Of a DNA stretch of 64,000 bases, positions 1,100-61,733 are shown piece after piece. The number at the start of each line of letters is the position of its first letter. The stretch's first letter is position 1. The translations under genes and the position numbers were made by a program. The notes beneath the pieces are model-generated. The model saw nothing but the letters and a program-made list of their open reading frames with translations. It did not search any database and was not told the origin of the DNA. Origin of the DNA: Clostridia bacterium (lineage in GTDB: Bacteria > Bacillota > Clostridia > TANB77 > CAG-508); the NCBI GenBank assembly GCA_045643465.1, contig JAZUKV010000033.1, forward strand, positions 24,295 to 88,294. Reading direction: 5' to 3'.

Positions 1100-1243
1100 T
1101 TATGATAAATTTATATAAATAGTAGTAATTATTTTTTTATTGTGTATAATAATTATGGTGAAATTTTACTAAAGAAAGGAAAAATTTTTATGAAAAAGAT
1201 AAAAATATGGAGAAAAATAGCAATTATATAAGTAATATTATTA

Positions 1244-1504
1244 TTGGTGATGATACCAAGCAAGGCATTAGCAATGCAAATATTTGTAAAAACACTTAAA
1301 GGGAAAACAATAACATTAGAAGTTGAACCAAGTGACACTATGGAAAATGTTAAAGCAAAAATTCAAGATAAAGAAGGAATAACACTAGATCAACAAAGAT
1401 TGATATTTTCAGGAAAACAATTAGAGGATAATAGAACATTAGCAGATTATAATATTCAAAAAGAAAGTACATTACAGTTAATATTAAGATTAGAAAGACT
1501 TTAA
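1244..1504 (+). CDS. Ubiquitin-like protein (core 1274-1504), ending LRLERL with no Gly-Gly
   Basis: The translation [76 protein letters not shown] is identical to human ubiquitin at 64 of 76 positions, by hand alignment from memory. Confidence 0.85.
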
Positions 1505-1533
1505 ATTTTGATGCTAATGGTGGAGAAGGAACA

Positions 1534-2118
1534 ATGGAATCTGTTTCTGATATTACTGGTGAATATATATTACCGGAAAATAAATTTATACCTCCATCAG
1601 GTAAGAGATTTAAAGGTTGGTCAACAGAGCAAAACGGTGAGATAATTACGAAAATAGTTGTTGATGAAACAAGTAGTAATGTTCCTGATACAGTATATGC
1701 TATTTGGGAAGATATTCCTACAATAAATTTTGAAAAATATGAATGTAATTACGGAGAATTAAGTAAAAGCCTTAGTGAATTTGGAATAACATTTACTGGA
1801 AAAATACCAACAAAATTAACTGTCAATTATTATGTAAATAATGAATTAAAATATACTGAAAATATTAATATGAATAATGAAAATGCTACTATTCTTAATG
1901 AAAAATTAAATCCAGGAAATTATGATGTAGAAATCTCAGGAATATATGATAATGATGAAAGCTATACTGTAAAAGGAAAGCTTATTATAAATAAAGTAAA
2001 AGATGAAAATACTGTACAAAAGAAAAGTAATAGTCCACAAACCGGTGACACAATATTTTTTGCAATTGGAGTATTGACAATATCATTAATAAGTATTTTT
2101 ATAATTAAAAGAAAATAA
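1534..2118 (+). CDS. Cell-wall-anchored surface protein fragment with a Listeria-Bacteroides (Flg_new) repeat and an SPQTG sorting signal
   Basis: FDANGGEGT...GKRFKGWSTEQNGE fits the Flg_new consensus. The C-terminus is SPQTGD plus a hydrophobic helix plus KRK. The frame is open upstream to 1453 and has no SD of its own. Confidence 0.7.
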   Translation: MESVSDITGEYILPENKFIPPSGKRFKGWSTEQNGEIITKIVVDETSSNVPDTVYAIWEDIPTINFEKYECNYGELSKSLSEFGITFTGKIPTKLTVNYYVNNELKYTENINMNNENATILNEKLNPGNYDVEISGIYDNDESYTVKGKLIINKVKDENTVQKKSNSPQTGDTIFFAIGVLTISLISIFIIKRK

Positions 2119-2130
2119 GTATAAATAAAT

Positions 2131-2163
2131 GAGGTTTGATATATTTCAGACCTTATTTTTTTG
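2131..2163 (+). terminator. Rho-independent terminator
   Basis: aggtttga...tcagacct followed by a T-run. Confidence 0.5.
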
Positions 2164-2352
2164 GTAAAAATTCAAAAATATATATGGAAAAACGCCTATA
2201 TATGTGTTATAATGCAAAATAATCTTATTATTAAGATACTCCATTTGCAAGTTATTTGCAAAAAAATATATTAAAGGAGGTAGATAAAAAGGATTAATGG
2301 TCAGTTAAAAAGGAAAAAAGTTCATTTCGGCGTACTAAGGAGGTAAGGAAAA

Positions 2353-4269
2353 ATGCAACGGATAGCAAAAGCATTTAGTGATGAAGAAACACTACGAGTT
2401 TTTTTAGAAGATGTAAAAGATTCTGTAAGAAACTTGAAAGTTGCTAAATTGCTAATGCAGGTCAATTGGTCTAGCGAAACATCTTACAAAGCAATTCAAG
2501 ATACAATTAAAATCATTGAAGAATATTTCGGACATGATATTTTAATTGTAGGCAATACCACAACTGGCTGCGTATTAGACGGAAAAGTTAATAGAACGCA
2601 GTCAACAATCAGATGCACAATTTACGAAGAAGAAACAACAGAATTGCAAGTGTTGCAGTTCGATTTTTCCGGAAAAAACATAAGCTCAATAGCACGAGAA
2701 GTAGTTAACATGATTAAATTTCAAAAGCATGTAAAATCATTGGAGTTTATATCAACAAAGATGATTGGAAATGTTGAAGAATTTTGCAAAATTTTAGGTG
2801 AATGCGATAAAAGCATAACCATATATGGAAGCACAATACCAAAAAATTATGAAAAAAATACTAATCAGTATGTATTTTCAAATAAGTTTGGAATAACATC
2901 AGATGGTATGATTTTTATAATAACAAAAGGTGAAGATTTCCATTGTAAAATGGATTTTTGCTTTGAGGGTTGGAGAATACTTGGAAATGAAAAATTTCAA
3001 GTAACAAATTGTTCAGAATCAGGTTTTTTTACAGGCATGGACATAGGAAACGTAACAGATGTTTTCAAGGAGTTGGGAATAATAACGGGTAATAAAAGCT
3101 ATGTGAATAAAATTGTTTTTTCATATAACAAAGGTAAATCAAAATATATTCGCTCCATAAAACATGATGACAGTAGAAATCATGGAGGATTACAGTTGGA
3201 TTTACCTATTGAAAATAATACGTATGTAAATATATCGTATTTTTATCCGATACGGTTCTTAGAAGGCTTTTTGGAAAAATGCAAAAAGATGGATGGATTT
3301 AGTCCGAATTTCATATCGACAATTTATGATATAGACAGGATTGGATTTGATGAGACGTTGGAAATTAAGTCATTGGATGAAATAGCACCTACGACAGGCT
3401 ATTGTGCTGAATCTTGTTTTGTAAGAAAAAGCACAAGCAGTCATATAACTACAATAAGTAAAGTACCTATTTATATAGGAATCCGTGAAGGAAAAAAACA
3501 AAGCAGGAAAAAAGATAATTTTCTTAATTTGTTAAAAAGCTATATAAAATCTAGAAAAAATTATAACGAAAACGCAGAAAATGAATACTATGAAATGCTG
3601 TGTCATTGTTTATCAAGTTATGGAAATCGAGTATATAAGTTATATACAACAGATGACCTTACAGGAATAAGCAATAGAGCAATAATAAAAAAATCCATAA
3701 AAGAAGCATTAATTGATTTGAACAATGATAGATGCAAATATGTATCATTAATGTTCCTTGATGTTGACAAATTCAAGAAAATAAATGACATATATGGACA
3801 TACCTCTGGTGATATTGTTTTGCGCAAAATCGGAGAAATTTTAAATGGTATTGAACAAAAATATGAAAATGTCAAAGTAGCCCGATGGGGCGGAGATGAG
3901 TTTCTAATTTTGTTAAAAGATTACAATTACGAAAGAGCCAAATCTTTAGCAAAGGAAATTCAGAATGAATATTCAAAAAAGATTTTTATGTTTTTGCCAT
4001 TACTTGAAAACTCTGAAAGCAAAGTAATAGTGACAGGCTTAAAGTTCAGCATAGGAGTAGCTTTTGCAGAGAAAAACTTTGAAGAGCAAGTGTTGGTTGC
4101 ATTAGCAGATCACGCTTTATACTATGTAAAGAAGAATGGCAGAGGTTTTATAAAATTTTATGATGACGAATGCAAGAAAAGCTTTCAAGCAAGATCAAAT
4201 ATTATTGACAATGAAGATAATAAGAAGATTAATCTTGTCGAAATGCTGAAAAAAGCAGGAGGCTCATAA
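2353..4269 (+). CDS. Diguanylate cyclase (GGDEF domain) with a large uncharacterised N-terminal sensor region
   Basis: The C-terminus carries DDLTGISNR...FLDVDKFKKINDIYGHTSGD...RWGGDEFLILL. Strong SD (aaggagg). Confidence 0.9.
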   Translation: MQRIAKAFSDEETLRVFLEDVKDSVRNLKVAKLLMQVNWSSETSYKAIQDTIKIIEEYFGHDILIVGNTTTGCVLDGKVNRTQSTIRCTIYEEETTELQVLQFDFSGKNISSIAREVVNMIKFQKHVKSLEFISTKMIGNVEEFCKILGECDKSITIYGSTIPKNYEKNTNQYVFSNKFGITSDGMIFIITKGEDFHCKMDFCFEGWRILGNEKFQVTNCSESGFFTGMDIGNVTDVFKELGIITGNKSYVNKIVFSYNKGKSKYIRSIKHDDSRNHGGLQLDLPIENNTYVNISYFYPIRFLEGFLEKCKKMDGFSPNFISTIYDIDRIGFDETLEIKSLDEIAPTTGYCAESCFVRKSTSSHITTISKVPIYIGIREGKKQSRKKDNFLNLLKSYIKSRKNYNENAENEYYEMLCHCLSSYGNRVYKLYTTDDLTGISNRAIIKKSIKEALIDLNNDRCKYVSLMFLDVDKFKKINDIYGHTSGDIVLRKIGEILNGIEQKYENVKVARWGGDEFLILLKDYNYERAKSLAKEIQNEYSKKIFMFLPLLENSESKVIVTGLKFSIGVAFAEKNFEEQVLVALADHALYYVKKNGRGFIKFYDDECKKSFQARSNIIDNEDNKKINLVEMLKKAGGS

Positions 4270-4367: not shown

Positions 4368-4730
4368 ATGAAGAATAAAGAATTTATTTATAAAATATTA
4401 ATAGGCTTTTTGGCTGGAATAGTAAATGGATTATTTGCAAGTGGTGGTGGAATGATATTAGTACCAGCATTTATATATTTACTAGATATGAAAGATAAAG
4501 AAGCAAGGGCAACATCAGTAATTTGTATATTGCCAATGGTAGTTACCAGTGGATTTTTTTATTATAGAAATAATTATATTGATTGGAAAATAGGATTACT
4601 TTGTGCTATAGGAGGAACATTGGGAGGAATTGTAGGTGCAAAGTTATTAAATAAAGTTCCTACTAAATATTTAAAATATGCCTTTACATTATTCTTGATA
4701 TATGCATCATATAAGTTAATTTTTATTTAG
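4368..4730 (+). CDS. Half-size TSUP (TauE/SafE) family membrane protein, 4 TM
   Basis: GLFASGGGMILVP motif and four hydrophobic segments. Confidence 0.8.
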   Translation: MKNKEFIYKILIGFLAGIVNGLFASGGGMILVPAFIYLLDMKDKEARATSVICILPMVVTSGFFYYRNNYIDWKIGLLCAIGGTLGGIVGAKLLNKVPTKYLKYAFTLFLIYASYKLIFI

Positions 4731-4747: not shown

Positions 4748-5120
4748 ATGATAGAAATTTTGACAGGATTTGTTTCGCGGAATAATAAGTGGAACTGGAA
4801 TGGGGGGTGGCACTATATTAATATTGTGCTTATCAATATTTTTAAGTTTGAACCAAAAGATAGCTCAAGCTACGAATCTAATATTTTTTATACCAACATC
4901 AATAGCTGCGATATATATTAATATAAGACAAAAAAATATTAATTTTAAAGTTGCTCAAATAATAATAGTATTTGGAATTATAGGAGCTATAGTAGGAGCC
5001 ATTATAGCTCAAAAGATAGATGTGAAATTGTTAAAAAAGTTATTCGGAGTTTTTCTTGCTATTGTTGCTATACATGAAATATATGTAATTATTAAAGAGC
5101 GTAGAGGCAAAGTAGAATAG
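4748..5120 (+). CDS. Second half-size TSUP (TauE/SafE) protein with an apparent 1-nt frameshift near 4769-4775
   Basis: An SD plus ATG at 4748 gives MIEILTGF. The family-like sequence FRGIISGTGMGGGTILI continues in the next frame from 4770. Confidence 0.65.
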
Positions 5121-59726: not shown

Positions 59727-61733
59727 ATGAATTACAGAATTACAAATGGATCTGTAGAATTTGGTGCGGAAACGATTTTAGAGCAGATTAACATTGAAAT
59801 AAAAGATAAAGAAAAAATTGCAATAATAGGTAGAAATGGTGCAGGAAAATCTACTTTATTAAAAGCTATTATAAATAACGAAATGCTTACAGAAGGTAGT
59901 GGTGAAGAAAAATTTAATATATACAAAGAGGGAAATCCAGTAATTGGATATCTAAAACAAATGGAATTTGAAGATGATAGTATTACTATGATTGATGAAA
60001 TTTTAAAAGTTTACAAGCCAATGATTGATTTAGAGAAAAAAATAGACATGCTAGTAGAAAAAATGCAGTTTGATAAATCTAATGAATTAGCAAATGAATA
60101 CTCAAAAGCGATGGATAGATATGAGTTTTTAGATGGATATACATATAAAAAAGAATATGAAACAGCAATTAACAAATTTGGATTTTCAGAGCAAGATAAG
60201 TTCAAAAAAATTAGTGAATTTTCAGGTGGACAGAGAACAAAAATTGCGTTTATAAAGTTACTATTAAGCAAACCAGATATATTATTATTAGATGAACCAA
60301 CAAATCATTTAGATGTTACAACAATAGAGTGGTTAGAGCAATATTTAAAAAATTATCCTAAATCGGTAGTAATAGTTTCACATGATAGAATGTTTTTAGA
60401 TAAAATAGTTAGTAAAGTTTACGAGATTGAATATGGTGAAATTACTGAATATTCTGGAAATTACACATTTTTCGAACATCAAAAAAAGGTAAATTATGAA
60501 AGACAGCTTAAAGATTATGAATATCAGCAAAAAGAAATAAAACGTTTAAATGATATTGTTACAAGATTTAAATATAAGCCAACAAAAGCTAAAATGGCAA
60601 TGTCAAAATTAAAACAAATAGAGCGTATGGTTAAAATTGAGGAACCAAATCGTTATGATTTAACAACATTCAAAACGAATTTTATTGTAGAAAAGCAAAG
60701 TGGAAAAGATGTAATATATGCAAAAGATTTAGAAATAGGGTATACAAGCTCTATTCAAAAGATTTCTTTTAATTTATACAAAGGACAAAAGTTAGCGGTA
60801 ATAGGAGAAAATGGAATTGGAAAATCTACACTATTAAAAACATTGGTAGGAACGATAAAAAAGGTTAATGGGGAATTTCAATTCGGGCATAATGTAACTA
60901 TTGGATATTTTGATCAACAAATGGCATTACTTGATTCAGAAAAAACAGTATTAGAAGATTTTGCAAATGAATTTCCAGATTTAACAACAACACAATTAAG
61001 AAATTCTTTAGCAGCATTCATGTTTTATGGGGAAGATGTTTTCAAAAAAATAAATATGTTATCTGGAGGAGAAAAAGTAAGGCTACAATTATGCAAAATA
61101 CTAAAAAAAGGTCTAAATTTATTAATATTGGATGAGCCAACAAACCATATGGATATTATAGGAAAAGAAAGTTTAGAGCTATTACTAAAAGAGTATACGG
61201 GGTCAATAATATTCGTATCACATGATAGATTTTTTGTAAATAAAATAGCAGATTCATTATTGATATTTAAAAAAGAGAATGTTACATATTTTGATGGAAC
61301 ATATGAGGAATACCAAAAAAATGAATTAGAAAAAAATGGTGAAAAAATAGATTTAAAAGAAACAAAAATAAAAAAGGTAAAAGAAGAAAATTCAAATGTG
61401 AAAGCATCAAACATAAAAGAATCAAACATAGAAGAAACAAATGTTGAAAAATCAAAAGTAAAAGATAATAACATAAAAAAGGCAAATAATACATATTTAA
61501 TGCAAAAAGAAAAAAACAAAGCTTTAGCCAAAACAAAAAAAATAGAGCGAGAAATAACTGACTTAGAAAACCAAATAAAAGAATACAACGAACAATTACT
61601 AGACGAGAGCAATTTCTCAGATTATGAAAAATTAGCCGAAATTCAAAATAAAATAGAAGAATGCAATACATTAATCGAAAGCAAGATGCAAGAGTGGGAG
61701 GAATTGGGGACGGTTCTAAATTCCACTTTTTAG
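59727..61733 (+). CDS. ABC-F family ATPase with a Lys/Glu/Asn-rich C-terminal tail
   Basis: Two NBDs (GRNGAGKST / FSGGQRTK and GENGIGKST / LSGGEKVR) and no TMD. The last 8 codons (GTVLNSTF) and the stop codon are supplied by the repeat at 61706-61726. Confidence 0.92.
   Translation: MNYRITNGSVEFGAETILEQINIEIKDKEKIAIIGRNGAGKSTLLKAIINNEMLTEGSGEEKFNIYKEGNPVIGYLKQMEFEDDSITMIDEILKVYKPMIDLEKKIDMLVEKMQFDKSNELANEYSKAMDRYEFLDGYTYKKEYETAINKFGFSEQDKFKKISEFSGGQRTKIAFIKLLLSKPDILLLDEPTNHLDVTTIEWLEQYLKNYPKSVVIVSHDRMFLDKIVSKVYEIEYGEITEYSGNYTFFEHQKKVNYERQLKDYEYQQKEIKRLNDIVTRFKYKPTKAKMAMSKLKQIERMVKIEEPNRYDLTTFKTNFIVEKQSGKDVIYAKDLEIGYTSSIQKISFNLYKGQKLAVIGENGIGKSTLLKTLVGTIKKVNGEFQFGHNVTIGYFDQQMALLDSEKTVLEDFANEFPDLTTTQLRNSLAAFMFYGEDVFKKINMLSGGEKVRLQLCKILKKGLNLLILDEPTNHMDIIGKESLELLLKEYTGSIIFVSHDRFFVNKIADSLLIFKKENVTYFDGTYEEYQKNELEKNGEKIDLKETKIKKVKEENSNVKASNIKESNIEETNVEKSKVKDNNIKKANNTYLMQKEKNKALAKTKKIEREITDLENQIKEYNEQLLDESNFSDYEKLAEIQNKIEECNTLIESKMQEWEELGTVLNSTF
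61706..61726 (+). repeat. Left terminal inverted repeat, GGGGACGGTTCTAAATTCCAC
   Basis: Identical to the 21-mer at 14614-14634 on the minus strand. It is an inverted match to 62354-62373 (17 of 20 by eye). Confidence 0.75.

Follow-up and report, generated by a model that had tools for sequence, protein, structure and literature searches.

Positions 1190–2118 of the window (that is, the whole stretch of 64,000 nt under analysis) very probably constitute an inactivated allele of a gene for a 309-amino acid surface protein, which is polymorphic in the population and belongs to a widespread class of genes encoding exported ubiquitins. The same gene exists as one intact open reading frame (ORF) at the same locus in a metagenome contig from a conspecific strain, named L084. 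There, a complete signal peptide of 28 aa (..SKALA↓MQIF..) precedes ubiquitin, after which come a single Flg_new-like repeat, the stalk and, at the C-terminus, SPQTGD, the hydrophobic helix and KRK; ubiquitin is, thus, fused to 207 further residues, the last part of which is a cell wall-sorting signal. An earlier note on this DNA, made from the letters of the window alone, had supposed that the signal peptide, the ubiquitin and a sortase-type surface protein once formed a single ORF, and had advised to look for an intact fusion in sister strains. L084 provides both, and another contig, L085, carries the same intact 5′ part.

Anatomy of the Gene and Its Two Lesions

In the window, the frame that opens with ATG 1190 encodes MKKIKIWRKIAII, is interrupted by TAA 1229–1231, and resumes through 14 residues to reach MQIFVK at 1274. 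This frame, comprising signal peptide and ubiquitin, terminates at TAA 1502–1504, while a second frame is open from 1453 to 2118 and finishes in the SPQTGD signal. The n-region of the signal peptide, its interruption by the TAA and the cleavage site right at Met1 had been read correctly in the earlier note, and the signal peptide is uninterrupted in L084. One missing base separates the two frames, as had also been proposed, but it is not located in the AAA run where it was first sought: the alignment of the window (AGA -TT AGA AAG ACT) with L084 (AGA CTT AGA AAA ACT) identifies a C missing at 1489/1490, which shifts the ubiquitin frame into the stop at 1502–1504. Relative to L084, the window carries, therefore, TAA versus GCT at codon 14 as well as a 1-nt deletion at codon 73 of ubiquitin, and in the sequence of this assembly, the allele is dead. 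The features of the locus are listed in Table 1.

Table 1. Features of the exported-ubiquitin locus in the window.
Feature	Positions	Strand	Remarks
−10-like hexamer TATAAT, TG in front	1145–1150	+	putative promoter; read from the sequence
Shine–Dalgarno sequence AAGGA	1176–1180	+	9 nt before ATG 1190
Signal-peptide coding region, 28 codons	1190–1273	+	broken by TAA 1229–1231; signal peptidase I predicted to cut ALA↓M at 1273/1274
Lesion 1, in-frame TAA at codon 14	1229–1231	+	falls within the signal-peptide hydrophobic core; GCT (Ala) in L084
Ubiquitin domain	1274–1500	+	codons 1–72 in frame; codons 73–76 = L-R-K-T after restoring the missing C
Lesion 2, 1-nt deletion (missing C) in ubiquitin codon 73	1489–1490	+	alignment to L084
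One Flg_new-like (Listeria–Bacteroides) repeat, GKRFKGWS...AIWEDIP	1501–1719	+	sub-threshold PF09479 match and homologues
Stalk domain, unassigned family, ~100 aa	1720–2031	+	97.9% identical to L084
Cell wall-sorting signal SPQTGD + 19 hydrophobic residues + KRK, then TAA stop	2032–2118	+	regex scan
Intrinsic terminator, 13-bp stem then T-run	2127–2165	+	1 found versus 0.2 expected in shuffles

The stretch that includes the TATAAT hexamer does not differ among the window, L084, L085 and a third strain, L003; a consensus scan listed no full −35/−10 pair at these positions, and the hexamer may function as a promoter. Rfam returned no riboswitch or other leader RNA within positions 1–2400. At the other end of the gene, the sorting signal, SPQTGD-TIFFAIGVLTISLISIFII-KRK, already recognised as such in the first reading, is the only one found by the regex scan in the 64 kb. 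It is weakly similar to the sortase-dependent protein model NF053819, and xPQTGD tails also occur in P0126, P0129, P0132, P0135, P0136 and L026. The sortase signature TLxTC is absent from the 64-kb window. The flanking genes are chromosomal genes of a spore former (GerXA, glycolysis). The proteins encoded in the window fall in singleton or very small 90% clusters (one to three members), and exact look-ups of its 194-, 76- and 84-aa products gave no record.

The Flg_new call of the earlier note was not sustained by Pfam itself, the similarity with PF09479 (E = 7.5e-4; 20 bits) staying below the cut-off of 27 bits, but homologues lend it support: the repeat region is 48–55% identical to the repeats in the PF09479-annotated proteins P0123–P0136. 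In L084, there was no PF09479 match at E ≤ 1e-4. P0131, in which a membrane anchor follows the signal peptide, the ubiquitin-like domain and Flg_new, is an intact distant homologue. Its 40% identity to the product of the gene runs unbroken across the ubiquitin/repeat junction; its ubiquitin-like domain has drifted to ~25% identity, with the architecture unchanged. The single-sequence AF2 model of P0131 reached a pLDDT of 37 only, and when used as a query, P0131 matched nothing but itself and one Flg_new protein. A scan of a metagenome collection with the non-ubiquitin part of the gene yielded only generic Flg_new proteins (≤46% identity), and the matches of the repaired fusion in the protein database were dominated by eukaryotic polyubiquitins. 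For the stalk, there was neither a Pfam match nor a PDB sequence match; it resembles the P0130 and P0135 tails, from which we guess that it could be an Ig-like beta-sandwich.

Intact and Null Alleles in the Population

The neighbours of the gene are the same in L084 and the window (a 183-aa gene upstream, FIST-GGDEF downstream), and the flanks of the two alleles are 98.7–99.8% identical. By contrast, nucleotide identity is 75.8% over the signal-peptide segment and 90.4% over ubiquitin, with ~99% elsewhere; pS in ubiquitin is 0.19 between the alleles. Since the segment for signal peptide and ubiquitin is 76–90% identical versus ~99% in the flanks, the alleles are evidently mosaic, with this segment as a recombinant, divergent cassette. 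In strain L003, 611 bp are lost, including the start codon and ubiquitin, with an 8-bp microhomology, GGAAAAAT, at the deletion junction. In the population, the intact allele occurs side by side with the nonsense plus frameshift allele and the 611-bp deletion allele. The earlier note had left three options for the window: a recent pseudogene, a set of assembly errors or three separately expressed pieces. The first of these is the best, as an intact allele and a different null allele (L003) segregate and the alignment of the window with L084 has only one indel in 2.4 kb.

Other mechanisms were considered and rejected. A diversity-generating retroelement acting on the hypervariable segment would be expected to leave an adenine bias; there is none (24 of the 44 substitutions involve A, versus an A content of 49%). 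Programmed frameshifting or phase variation finds neither a slippery heptamer nor a long homopolymer at 1489–1500, and would leave the TAA uncured. Recoding of TAA is not compatible with the neighbouring genes and the gene itself, all of which terminate in TAA. L087 (P0128) might have been a third, rearranged allele, but the contig is chimeric, its GT8 part having a much higher GC.

The Ubiquitin Domain

In a Pfam profile search, the 76-aa product of 1274–1504 matched the ubiquitin family (PF00240) with E = 5.3e-30 and 103.4 bits (cut-off 25.4); the L084 allele scored 105.7 bits. The product shares 64 of its 76 residues with human ubiquitin, with exactly the 12 differences originally listed, and 65 of 76 after frame repair. 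The AF2 model has a pLDDT of 87.6, and its top matches in the PDB (Foldseek) are all ubiquitin, with TM scores of 0.89–0.95 and RMSDs of 0.9–1.8 Å; the domain is, thus, predicted to adopt a beta-grasp fold superposable on ubiquitin. Judged from its sequence, 1274–1500 encodes a bona fide ubiquitin.

All seven lysines (K6, K11, K27, K29, K33, K48 and K63) are kept in the window, as are L8 and I44. Residue 70, which had been counted among the conserved residues of the hydrophobic patch, is altered (V70I), and so is residue 68 (H68Q); the changes in the patch of L084 are H68D and A46E. The two ubiquitins are the most diverged of the compared set at patch residues 46 and 68, which fits poorly with strict mimicry in this species. 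The ending LRLERL, reported before, is what the window reads, but it is an artefact of following the frame past the frameshift: in the repaired window, as in L084, the tail is LRLRKT and runs into the repeat. LRLRGG is missing all the same, as the earlier note had it, and in the absence of Gly-Gly, this ubiquitin would be neither processed nor conjugated.

The GC3 of the ubiquitin segment is 0.10, in a genome of 27% GC. Other gut Clostridia, Fibrobacter and Synergistes share with the window ubiquitin the residue change G53N (with S57A), which none of the eukaryotic polyubiquitins retrieved has. With its GC3 fully ameliorated and G53N shared among bacteria, the gene was not freshly taken from a eukaryote. 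The horizontal acquisition postulated in the earlier note is supported as to a horizontally derived origin, but not as to a fresh eukaryotic donor.

Exported Ubiquitins across Prokaryotes

A scan of species-representative prokaryotic genomes for exact 8-mers from a ubiquitin query uncovered 463 ubiquitin stretches (the genome of the window was not among the matches), contrary to the initial assumption that bacterial ubiquitin is essentially limited to Bacteroides fragilis. In 45 of the 57 loci on long contigs, a hydrophobic signal peptide with A/G at −1 and A/V at −3 directly precedes Met1. As members of the class, we count genes whose ubiquitin shares at least ~80% of its residues with the eukaryotic protein, begins with Met1 immediately behind a signal peptidase site and leads into a surface or anchor module; this arrangement is present in L084, the window and 45 of the 57 long-contig loci, and extends over more than 10 phyla. 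Following up one locus has exposed hundreds of ubiquitins at least ~80% identical to that of the window. In a full-text literature search, no paper was found to describe surface proteins that carry ubiquitin between a signal peptide and the passenger; as far as could be found, the architecture is undescribed, as the earlier note surmised, but it is common in genomes.

The passengers and anchors of the class include the autotransporter beta-domain (eight), the T9SS tail (two), Flg_new (three), GLUG (three), and choline-binding and PG-binding modules; nearly all of the ubiquitins begin right at a signal peptidase site and would be held at the surface through whichever anchor their lineage employs. 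Flg_new arrays come after ubiquitin in L069, L021 and L039, and sortase-type tails are present in L005 (SPKTGD) and L026 (IPQTGDS). LRLRGG is retained before the passenger in L004, L010, L016, L022, L044 and L083, and such fusions would formally be substrates of deubiquitinases (DUBs). Dyella OK004 (L019) and Sphingomonas (L052) have free secreted forms with the ending RGG. The carriers span Clostridia, Fibrobacter, Proteobacteria, Verrucomicrobia, Planctomycetes, Bacteroidota, Actinobacteria and archaea. Carriage by phages was considered and rejected: the 80 viral loci are mostly giant-virus ubiquitins, and none has a real signal peptide.

The GC3 of ubiquitin tracks the GC of the host (r = 0.91). 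Synonymous sites are saturated in the class and pN is ~0.085, a high conservation that is partly an ascertainment effect of the exact 8-mer requirement; purifying selection on the ubiquitin of the class appears strong. Amongst 14 homologous pairs, ubiquitin is 90–100% identical, beside passengers 40–100% identical in the 12 pairs that have one. Ubiquitin so conserved next to passengers down to ~40% identity calls for a functional explanation. In genome annotation, a ubiquitin found on a bacterial contig should not be discarded by default as a contaminant.

Possible Functions

The 309-aa protein would be exported by the Sec pathway, after which signal peptidase I would cut SKALA↓MQIF, so that Met1 of ubiquitin becomes the mature N-terminus. 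The Flg_new-like repeat and the stalk would serve as a spacer, and a sortase, probably one with a preference for (S/P)PxTG, would cut SPQT↓G and link the protein to peptidoglycan, leaving a near-authentic ubiquitin exposed at the outward tip. With its tail LRLRKT and no Gly-Gly, this ubiquitin would act as a permanent, non-conjugatable binding or mimicry module. We infer that it serves to engage ubiquitin-recognising partners of eukaryotes.

For the class as a whole, we put forward only tentatively that prokaryotes of many phyla, some archaea included, display real ubiquitin on the outermost end of proteins that are secreted or anchored to the surface, under eukaryote-grade purifying selection, and thereby engage the machinery with which eukaryotic grazers or hosts recognise or process ubiquitin, the present locus being a decayed member. 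In that case, host DUBs could cleave the members that retain Gly-Gly, or host E1 could charge them. Ruminococcus albus 8, Clostridiales NK3B98, Dyella spp. and Limnohabitans DCL3 are culturable carriers in which a manipulation of eukaryotic predators or hosts could be tested.

It is likewise possible, though we would not count on it, that ubiquitin caps the N-terminus in this class only because it folds fast and is hyper-stable, helping secretion or folding or resisting proteases, with no part in recognising or mimicking eukaryotic partners. Its extreme N-terminal position, after the signal peptide and before unrelated passengers and every kind of anchor, is in line with such a role, as are the loss of Gly-Gly in 43 of the 57 loci, the P0131 domain that occupies the same architecture at ~25% identity, and the free-living soil and freshwater bacteria among the carriers (Dyella and Limnohabitans have no obvious host). 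However, constraint by the fold leaves the near-invariant surface residues (the seven lysines, L8, I44, H68, V70 and the TEK-box) unexplained; in yeast deep mutational scans, many surface positions of ubiquitin reportedly tolerate change as regards stability. Nor does it account for ubiquitins that stay 90–100% identical where their passengers are down to 40–55%.

Alternative Readings of the Locus

Could the gene be intact in the organism, with both lesions being assembly or consensus errors? The frameshift involves one base only, in an AT-rich context, and an intact allele of identical length is present in the population. We nevertheless consider this improbable. The single indel over 2.4 kb relative to the short-read contig L084 speaks against an indel-prone assembly, and the missing C adjoins a run of only two T, outside any homopolymer. 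The TAA is of the substitution type and differs from the GCT of L084 at all three bases. Moreover, two lesions fall in one 930-nt gene, the neighbouring genes being clean, and the unrelated null allele in another strain implies that loss is tolerated.

That the pieces are used separately, with a cytoplasmic ubiquitin made by re-initiation (at TTG 1244, GTG 1247, ATG 1250 or ATG 1274) and a 194-aa protein from ATG 1534, is very unlikely, even if the re-initiation codons lie 13–45 nt past the TAA, a weak AAGG occurs 9 nt before ATG 1274, and both ORFs appear in the mechanical ORF list. The orthologous L084 allele is one ORF. Both remaining ORFs in the window lack an export signal, which speaks against the separately expressed pieces of the earlier note; the 194-aa product, in particular, has a sorting signal but no signal peptide and, hence, no route to a sortase. 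The last residues of the ubiquitin ORF, ERL, stem from the frameshift, neither product has an exact copy in other records, and no E1, E2 or DUB partner is evident among the window ORFs scanned.

Eukaryotic contamination or a chimeric assembly join is scarcely credible for this ubiquitin, despite the many short ubiquitin contigs in bacterial assemblies that look contaminant (23 of the 80 best matches are shorter than 1.2 kb) and the chimeric nature of the related contig L087. Its GC3 is 0.10 in a genome of low GC, it is in frame with a bacterial Shine–Dalgarno sequence, signal peptide and sorting signal, its junctions recur unchanged in assemblies made independently (L084, L085 and the window), and spore-former genes lie on its flanks.

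Comparison with Known Systems

The inactivated surface-protein gene can be compared with BfUbb, a secreted eukaryote-like ubiquitin of Bacteroides fragilis, which, with BoUbb of B. ovatus, is treated in the literature found as nearly the sole bacterial ubiquitin (PMC3352274, PMC5705921, PMC11467351). BfUbb, a free protein of ~76 aa with 63% identity to human ubiquitin, is an intraspecies toxin that is imported via a SusCD transporter and targets a periplasmic PPIase (PMC3352274, PMC5705921, PMC11467351). Both systems involve a ubiquitin-family gene of eukaryotic or viral ancestry in a bacterium, with a Sec-type signal peptide immediately before Met1 of ubiquitin (TAA-interrupted in the window) and no functional C-terminal Gly-Gly; only some strains carry the gene, and the product acts outside the producer cell, as it presumably would in our case. 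The ubiquitin studied here is 84–88% identical to the human protein. Unlike free-standing BfUbb, it is the N-terminal domain of a 309-aa Gram-positive protein that continues through a repeat and a stalk to a sortase-type anchor, and there is no indication of toxin activity.

Signals of the type (S/P)PxTG characterise the substrates of SrtB in Clostridioides difficile. With these substrates, the gene has in common the tripartite C-terminal signal (SPQTG, hydrophobic helix, basic tail) and a small, modular, adhesin-like build with an N-terminal signal peptide. We know of no described SrtB-type substrate that carries ubiquitin. The cognate sortase was not found within the 64-kb window, and the organism is a low-GC spore former other than C. 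difficile.

With the Flg_new or InlB B-repeat proteins, the gene shares the pattern TxxFDANGGxGxM...GxxFxGW...AxWexxP, here right after ubiquitin. The homologues P0123–P0136 are typical multi-repeat wall proteins with xPQTGD tails, whereas the present gene has one divergent repeat, sub-threshold in Pfam, plus a ubiquitin cap.

Finally, N-terminal ubiquitin fused head-to-tail is also a feature of the eukaryotic fusion precursors (polyubiquitin and ubiquitin–ribosomal protein). Eukaryotic and giant-virus ubiquitins differ in being cytosolic, without a signal peptide, and unlike the eukaryotic fusions, the window gene is devoid of Gly-Gly. The locus represents a different use of ubiquitin, in which a sortase-type surface protein of a Gram-positive bacterium would carry it permanently as a cap.

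A ubiquitin in a disrupted gene for a putative surface protein

The 76-codon ORF at position 1274 is a ubiquitin by every test applied. It matches the Pfam ubiquitin profile PF00240, named for this check in the earlier note, with 103 bits (E = 5e-30); the best PDB matches of its AF2 model (pLDDT 87.6) are all ubiquitin (TM 0.89-0.95), and it is identical to human ubiquitin at 64 of 76 positions as read, the differences being exactly the 12 counted in the note. The Shine-Dalgarno sequence, signal-peptide start, TAA and ubiquitin ORF described there agree with the sequence. The tail described for the second frame (SPQTGD, hydrophobic helix, KRK) is likewise present and is the sole sorting signal in 64 kb; the product has the sequence features of a sortase-dependent wall protein. 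The proposed Flg_new repeat is 48-55% identical to the repeats of PF09479-annotated proteins, but its profile match is weak (20 bits, under the cut-off of 27).

Features of the gene (1190-2118) and of other loci in the window
Feature	Position	Observation
Shine-Dalgarno AAGGA	9 nt 5′ of ATG 1190	read from sequence
Codons 1-13	from ATG 1190	MKKIKIWRKIAII
Codon 14, TAA	1229-1231	frame open again beyond, on into ubiquitin
Ubiquitin ORF, 76 codons	start 1274, stop 1502-1504	in frame with ATG 1190
Second open frame	1453-2118	ends SPQTGD, 19-residue hydrophobic stretch, KRK
Intrinsic terminator	2127-2158	3′ of gene
FIST-GGDEF diguanylate cyclase	2353-4269	directly 3′ of the ubiquitin gene; kept in contigs of all alleles
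Half-size multi-pass membrane ORFs	4368-4730, 4770-5120	adjoining; 120 and 116 aa
ABC-F protein	59727-61733	best NCBIfam match: OptrA ribosomal-protection model, E=1e-206

An intact allele and the two lesions

With the C-terminal half of the gene as the query, few homologues were found; the adjoining 183-aa gene led to L084, a conspecific contig from an ENA metagenome assembly with the same neighbours as the window and flanks 98.7-99.8% identical. At the same locus, L084 carries a single unbroken 309-aa ORF, composed of a 28-aa segment, a 74-aa segment and then KTLKFDANGGEGTM ... SNSPQTGDTIFFAIGVLTISLISIFIIKRK, and the Logan contig L085 has the same intact 5′ part. Signal peptide, ubiquitin, repeat, stalk and sortase signal do therefore form a single gene, as reconstructed before, and L084 supplies the intact fusion to be looked for in relatives.

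In the alignment to L084, the window TAA stands opposite GCT (Ala), and a C is absent between 1489 and 1490, where L084 reads AGA CTT AGA AAA ACT and the window AGA -TT AGA AAG ACT. The single-base loss postulated earlier is thus borne out by the alignment, but its site is here and not in the AAA run at 1494-1496. Putting the C back gives ...LQLILRLRKTLNFD and raises the identity to human ubiquitin to 65/76; the ubiquitin tail is LRLRKT, the LRLERL reported before being a frameshift artefact.

A third allele occurs in L003, a contig from the same study with identical flanks, from which window 1186-1796 is absent. This deletion of 611 bp has an 8-bp microhomology (GGAAAAAT) at its junction and takes out the start codon, signal peptide, ubiquitin and repeat; the remnant of the gene is only ~90% identical over 1797-2004. 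Intact and independently inactivated alleles coexist, and therefore loss is tolerated.

Amongst the options that had been left open, a recent pseudogene agrees with the null allele in L003, and in all likelihood the window allele is a genuine one. It is improbable that assembly error accounts for the lesions: a single indel separates window and L084 across 2.4 kb, so the window assembly is not indel-prone, and the TAA is a substitution, not a homopolymer error. Use of the residual ORFs as separate pieces is countered by the first lacking a complete signal peptide and the second any signal peptide, while the sequence supports neither programmed frameshifting nor phase variation nor stop-codon recoding.

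Identity between window and L084 is 75.8% over the Shine-Dalgarno and signal-peptide segment, 90.4% over ubiquitin and 98-99% from the repeat on. The synonymous divergence of the ubiquitins (pS 0.19, pN 0.07), far above that of the flanks, is beyond what decay alone explains, so the signal-peptide/ubiquitin segment is a divergent cassette acquired by recombination. A diversity-generating retroelement was ruled out, the substitutions having no adenine bias. At residues 46 and 68, on the rim of the I44 patch, neither ubiquitin has the residue of the clade consensus. In its behaviour the gene resembles a surface antigen that is polymorphic and dispensable; the finding is real, its earlier interpretation essentially right, and the window copy has very probably become a pseudogene only recently, the gene being polymorphic and coding for a wall protein tipped with ubiquitin.

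Genomic surroundings

The host is a low-GC spore former: the window (27% GC) encodes the spore-germination protein GerXA and enzymes of glycolysis and glycogen metabolism, and its proteins fall into 90% clusters that are singletons or very small (1-3 members). Eukaryotic contamination was rejected, as the ubiquitin is fully ameliorated (GC3 0.10). Neither a sortase gene nor a second ubiquitin was found in the 64-kb window, an Rfam search gave no leader RNA, and no c-di-GMP riboswitch was found ahead of the surface-protein gene.

Directly upstream of the locus, L084 (1-1085) and L003 (1-1044) carry a stand-alone 5S rRNA and a tRNA. The window has unrelated sequence there (1-423), similarity beginning exactly at the tRNA 3′ end (..GGAGCCA, about 424), and ARAGORN detected no tRNA at the window start; it seems that sequence was inserted or rearranged at the 3′ end of the tRNA, and the window starts inside that sequence. 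In a related 1,087-bp contig, L087 (ENA ERZ27247217 k141_595255), the final 266 bp of the gene are joined to part of a GT8 glycosyltransferase whose GC is much higher; only about 14 nt at the join are common to both parts, and the tail has an extra 1-nt indel in the T-run of the anchor. It is probably a chimeric assembly, albeit with an overlap oddly short for a k>=21 assembler.

By eye, the adjoining membrane ORFs look like a TauE/SafE-type exporter in two halves; they are either a naturally split pair or one more disrupted gene. For the ABC-F protein, the OptrA label was rejected (688 bits, far under the model cut-off of 1450); the model that it does satisfy is the generic ABC-F ribosomal-protection-like one.

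A class of prokaryotic ubiquitins behind signal peptides

The main value of the locus is as a way into a widespread, apparently overlooked class. When one genome was scanned for each prokaryotic species, with exact-8-mer seeding that biases the set towards conserved members, 463 stretches coding for close ubiquitin relatives came to light. Of the best 80, 23 lie on tiny contigs and look like eukaryotic contamination; the other 57 are on long contigs, some of them from isolates or complete chromosomes (Ruminococcus albus 8, Clostridiales NK3B98, several Dyella, Limnohabitans DCL3, Conexibacter, Sphingomonas). A hydrophobic signal peptide (A/G at -1, A/V at -3) ends exactly at the ubiquitin Met1 in 45 of the 57. 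Behind the ubiquitin follow surface or anchoring modules of all kinds: autotransporter beta-domains (8 loci), T9SS tails, arrays of Flg_new, GLUG, SdrD_B or Big_2, choline-binding and PG-binding repeats, or membrane anchors. Sortase-type tails occur in L005 (SPKTGD) and in L026 of Ca. Limiplasma, which consists of signal peptide, ubiquitin, PT linker and IPQTGDS, nothing more. Some loci stop straight after ubiquitin, part of them retaining RGG.

The ubiquitin domains of the class are 64-75/76 identical to human ubiquitin, with saturated synonymous sites, pN ~0.085 and GC3 from 0.07 to 0.96, correlated with host GC (r=0.91). Within homologous pairs, ubiquitins are 90-100% identical and passengers down to 40-55%. 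G53N, accompanied by S57A, is common to the window ubiquitin and those of other gut Clostridia, Fibrobacter and Synergistes; no eukaryotic polyubiquitin retrieved has G53N, and its sharing points to inter-bacterial spread following an old acquisition. P0131, an intact protein with signal peptide, Ubl, Flg_new and anchor, is a distant homologue, with 40% identity over the junction when compared with the repaired window protein; it shows that the domain can also drift. Viral contigs encode many ubiquitins, mostly in giant viruses, none with a signal peptide ahead.

In two Methanobacteriota MAGs (L018:2522-2929; L024:4911-5429), an archaeal ubiquitin, 72/76 identical to human, lies ~120 residues into the protein, behind what look like an archaeal pilin-type signal and TM segments, not directly behind a Sec signal peptide. 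A Burkholderiaceae MAG (L076:4947-5579) has a canonical and a diverged ubiquitin in tandem, then a membrane anchor, with no obvious upstream signal peptide. In free-living Proteobacteria (Dyella spp., Sphingomonas canadensis; L019, L052, L059, L009, L023, L074), signal peptide and ubiquitin stand alone; an intact LRLRGG closes L019 and L052, and such a secreted ubiquitin would in principle be open to conjugation by a eukaryotic E1.

Possible function and known systems

Beyond the gene anatomy, intact allele, lesions and class observed here, the intact protein would be exported by Sec, cut by signal peptidase I ahead of the ubiquitin Met1 and attached by sortase at SPQT|G, to display a non-conjugatable ubiquitin outward on a short stalk. 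Surface lysines and hydrophobic patches hardly vary across the class, which speaks for a domain that eukaryotic ubiquitin-binding machinery (e.g., of grazers or hosts) may recognise or take for its own ubiquitin. The main rival, that the ubiquitin does no more than cap the N-terminus as a hyper-stable module for folding or protection, appears possible but rather doubtful.

The earlier note held the architecture to be undescribed, and full-text literature searches turned up no account of surface proteins that carry a fused ubiquitin after the signal peptide; for novelty we claim "not found", no more. Among described systems, BfUbb/BoUbb of Bacteroides fragilis and B. ovatus comes closest, being secreted, strain-variable and without Gly-Gly; BfUbb is a free toxin (63% identity) with SusCD import and a PPIase target (PMC3352274, PMC5705921, PMC11467351). 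The window-type protein, in contrast, lacks the defining features of that family and does not suggest toxin activity; its ubiquitin is fused and would be anchored.
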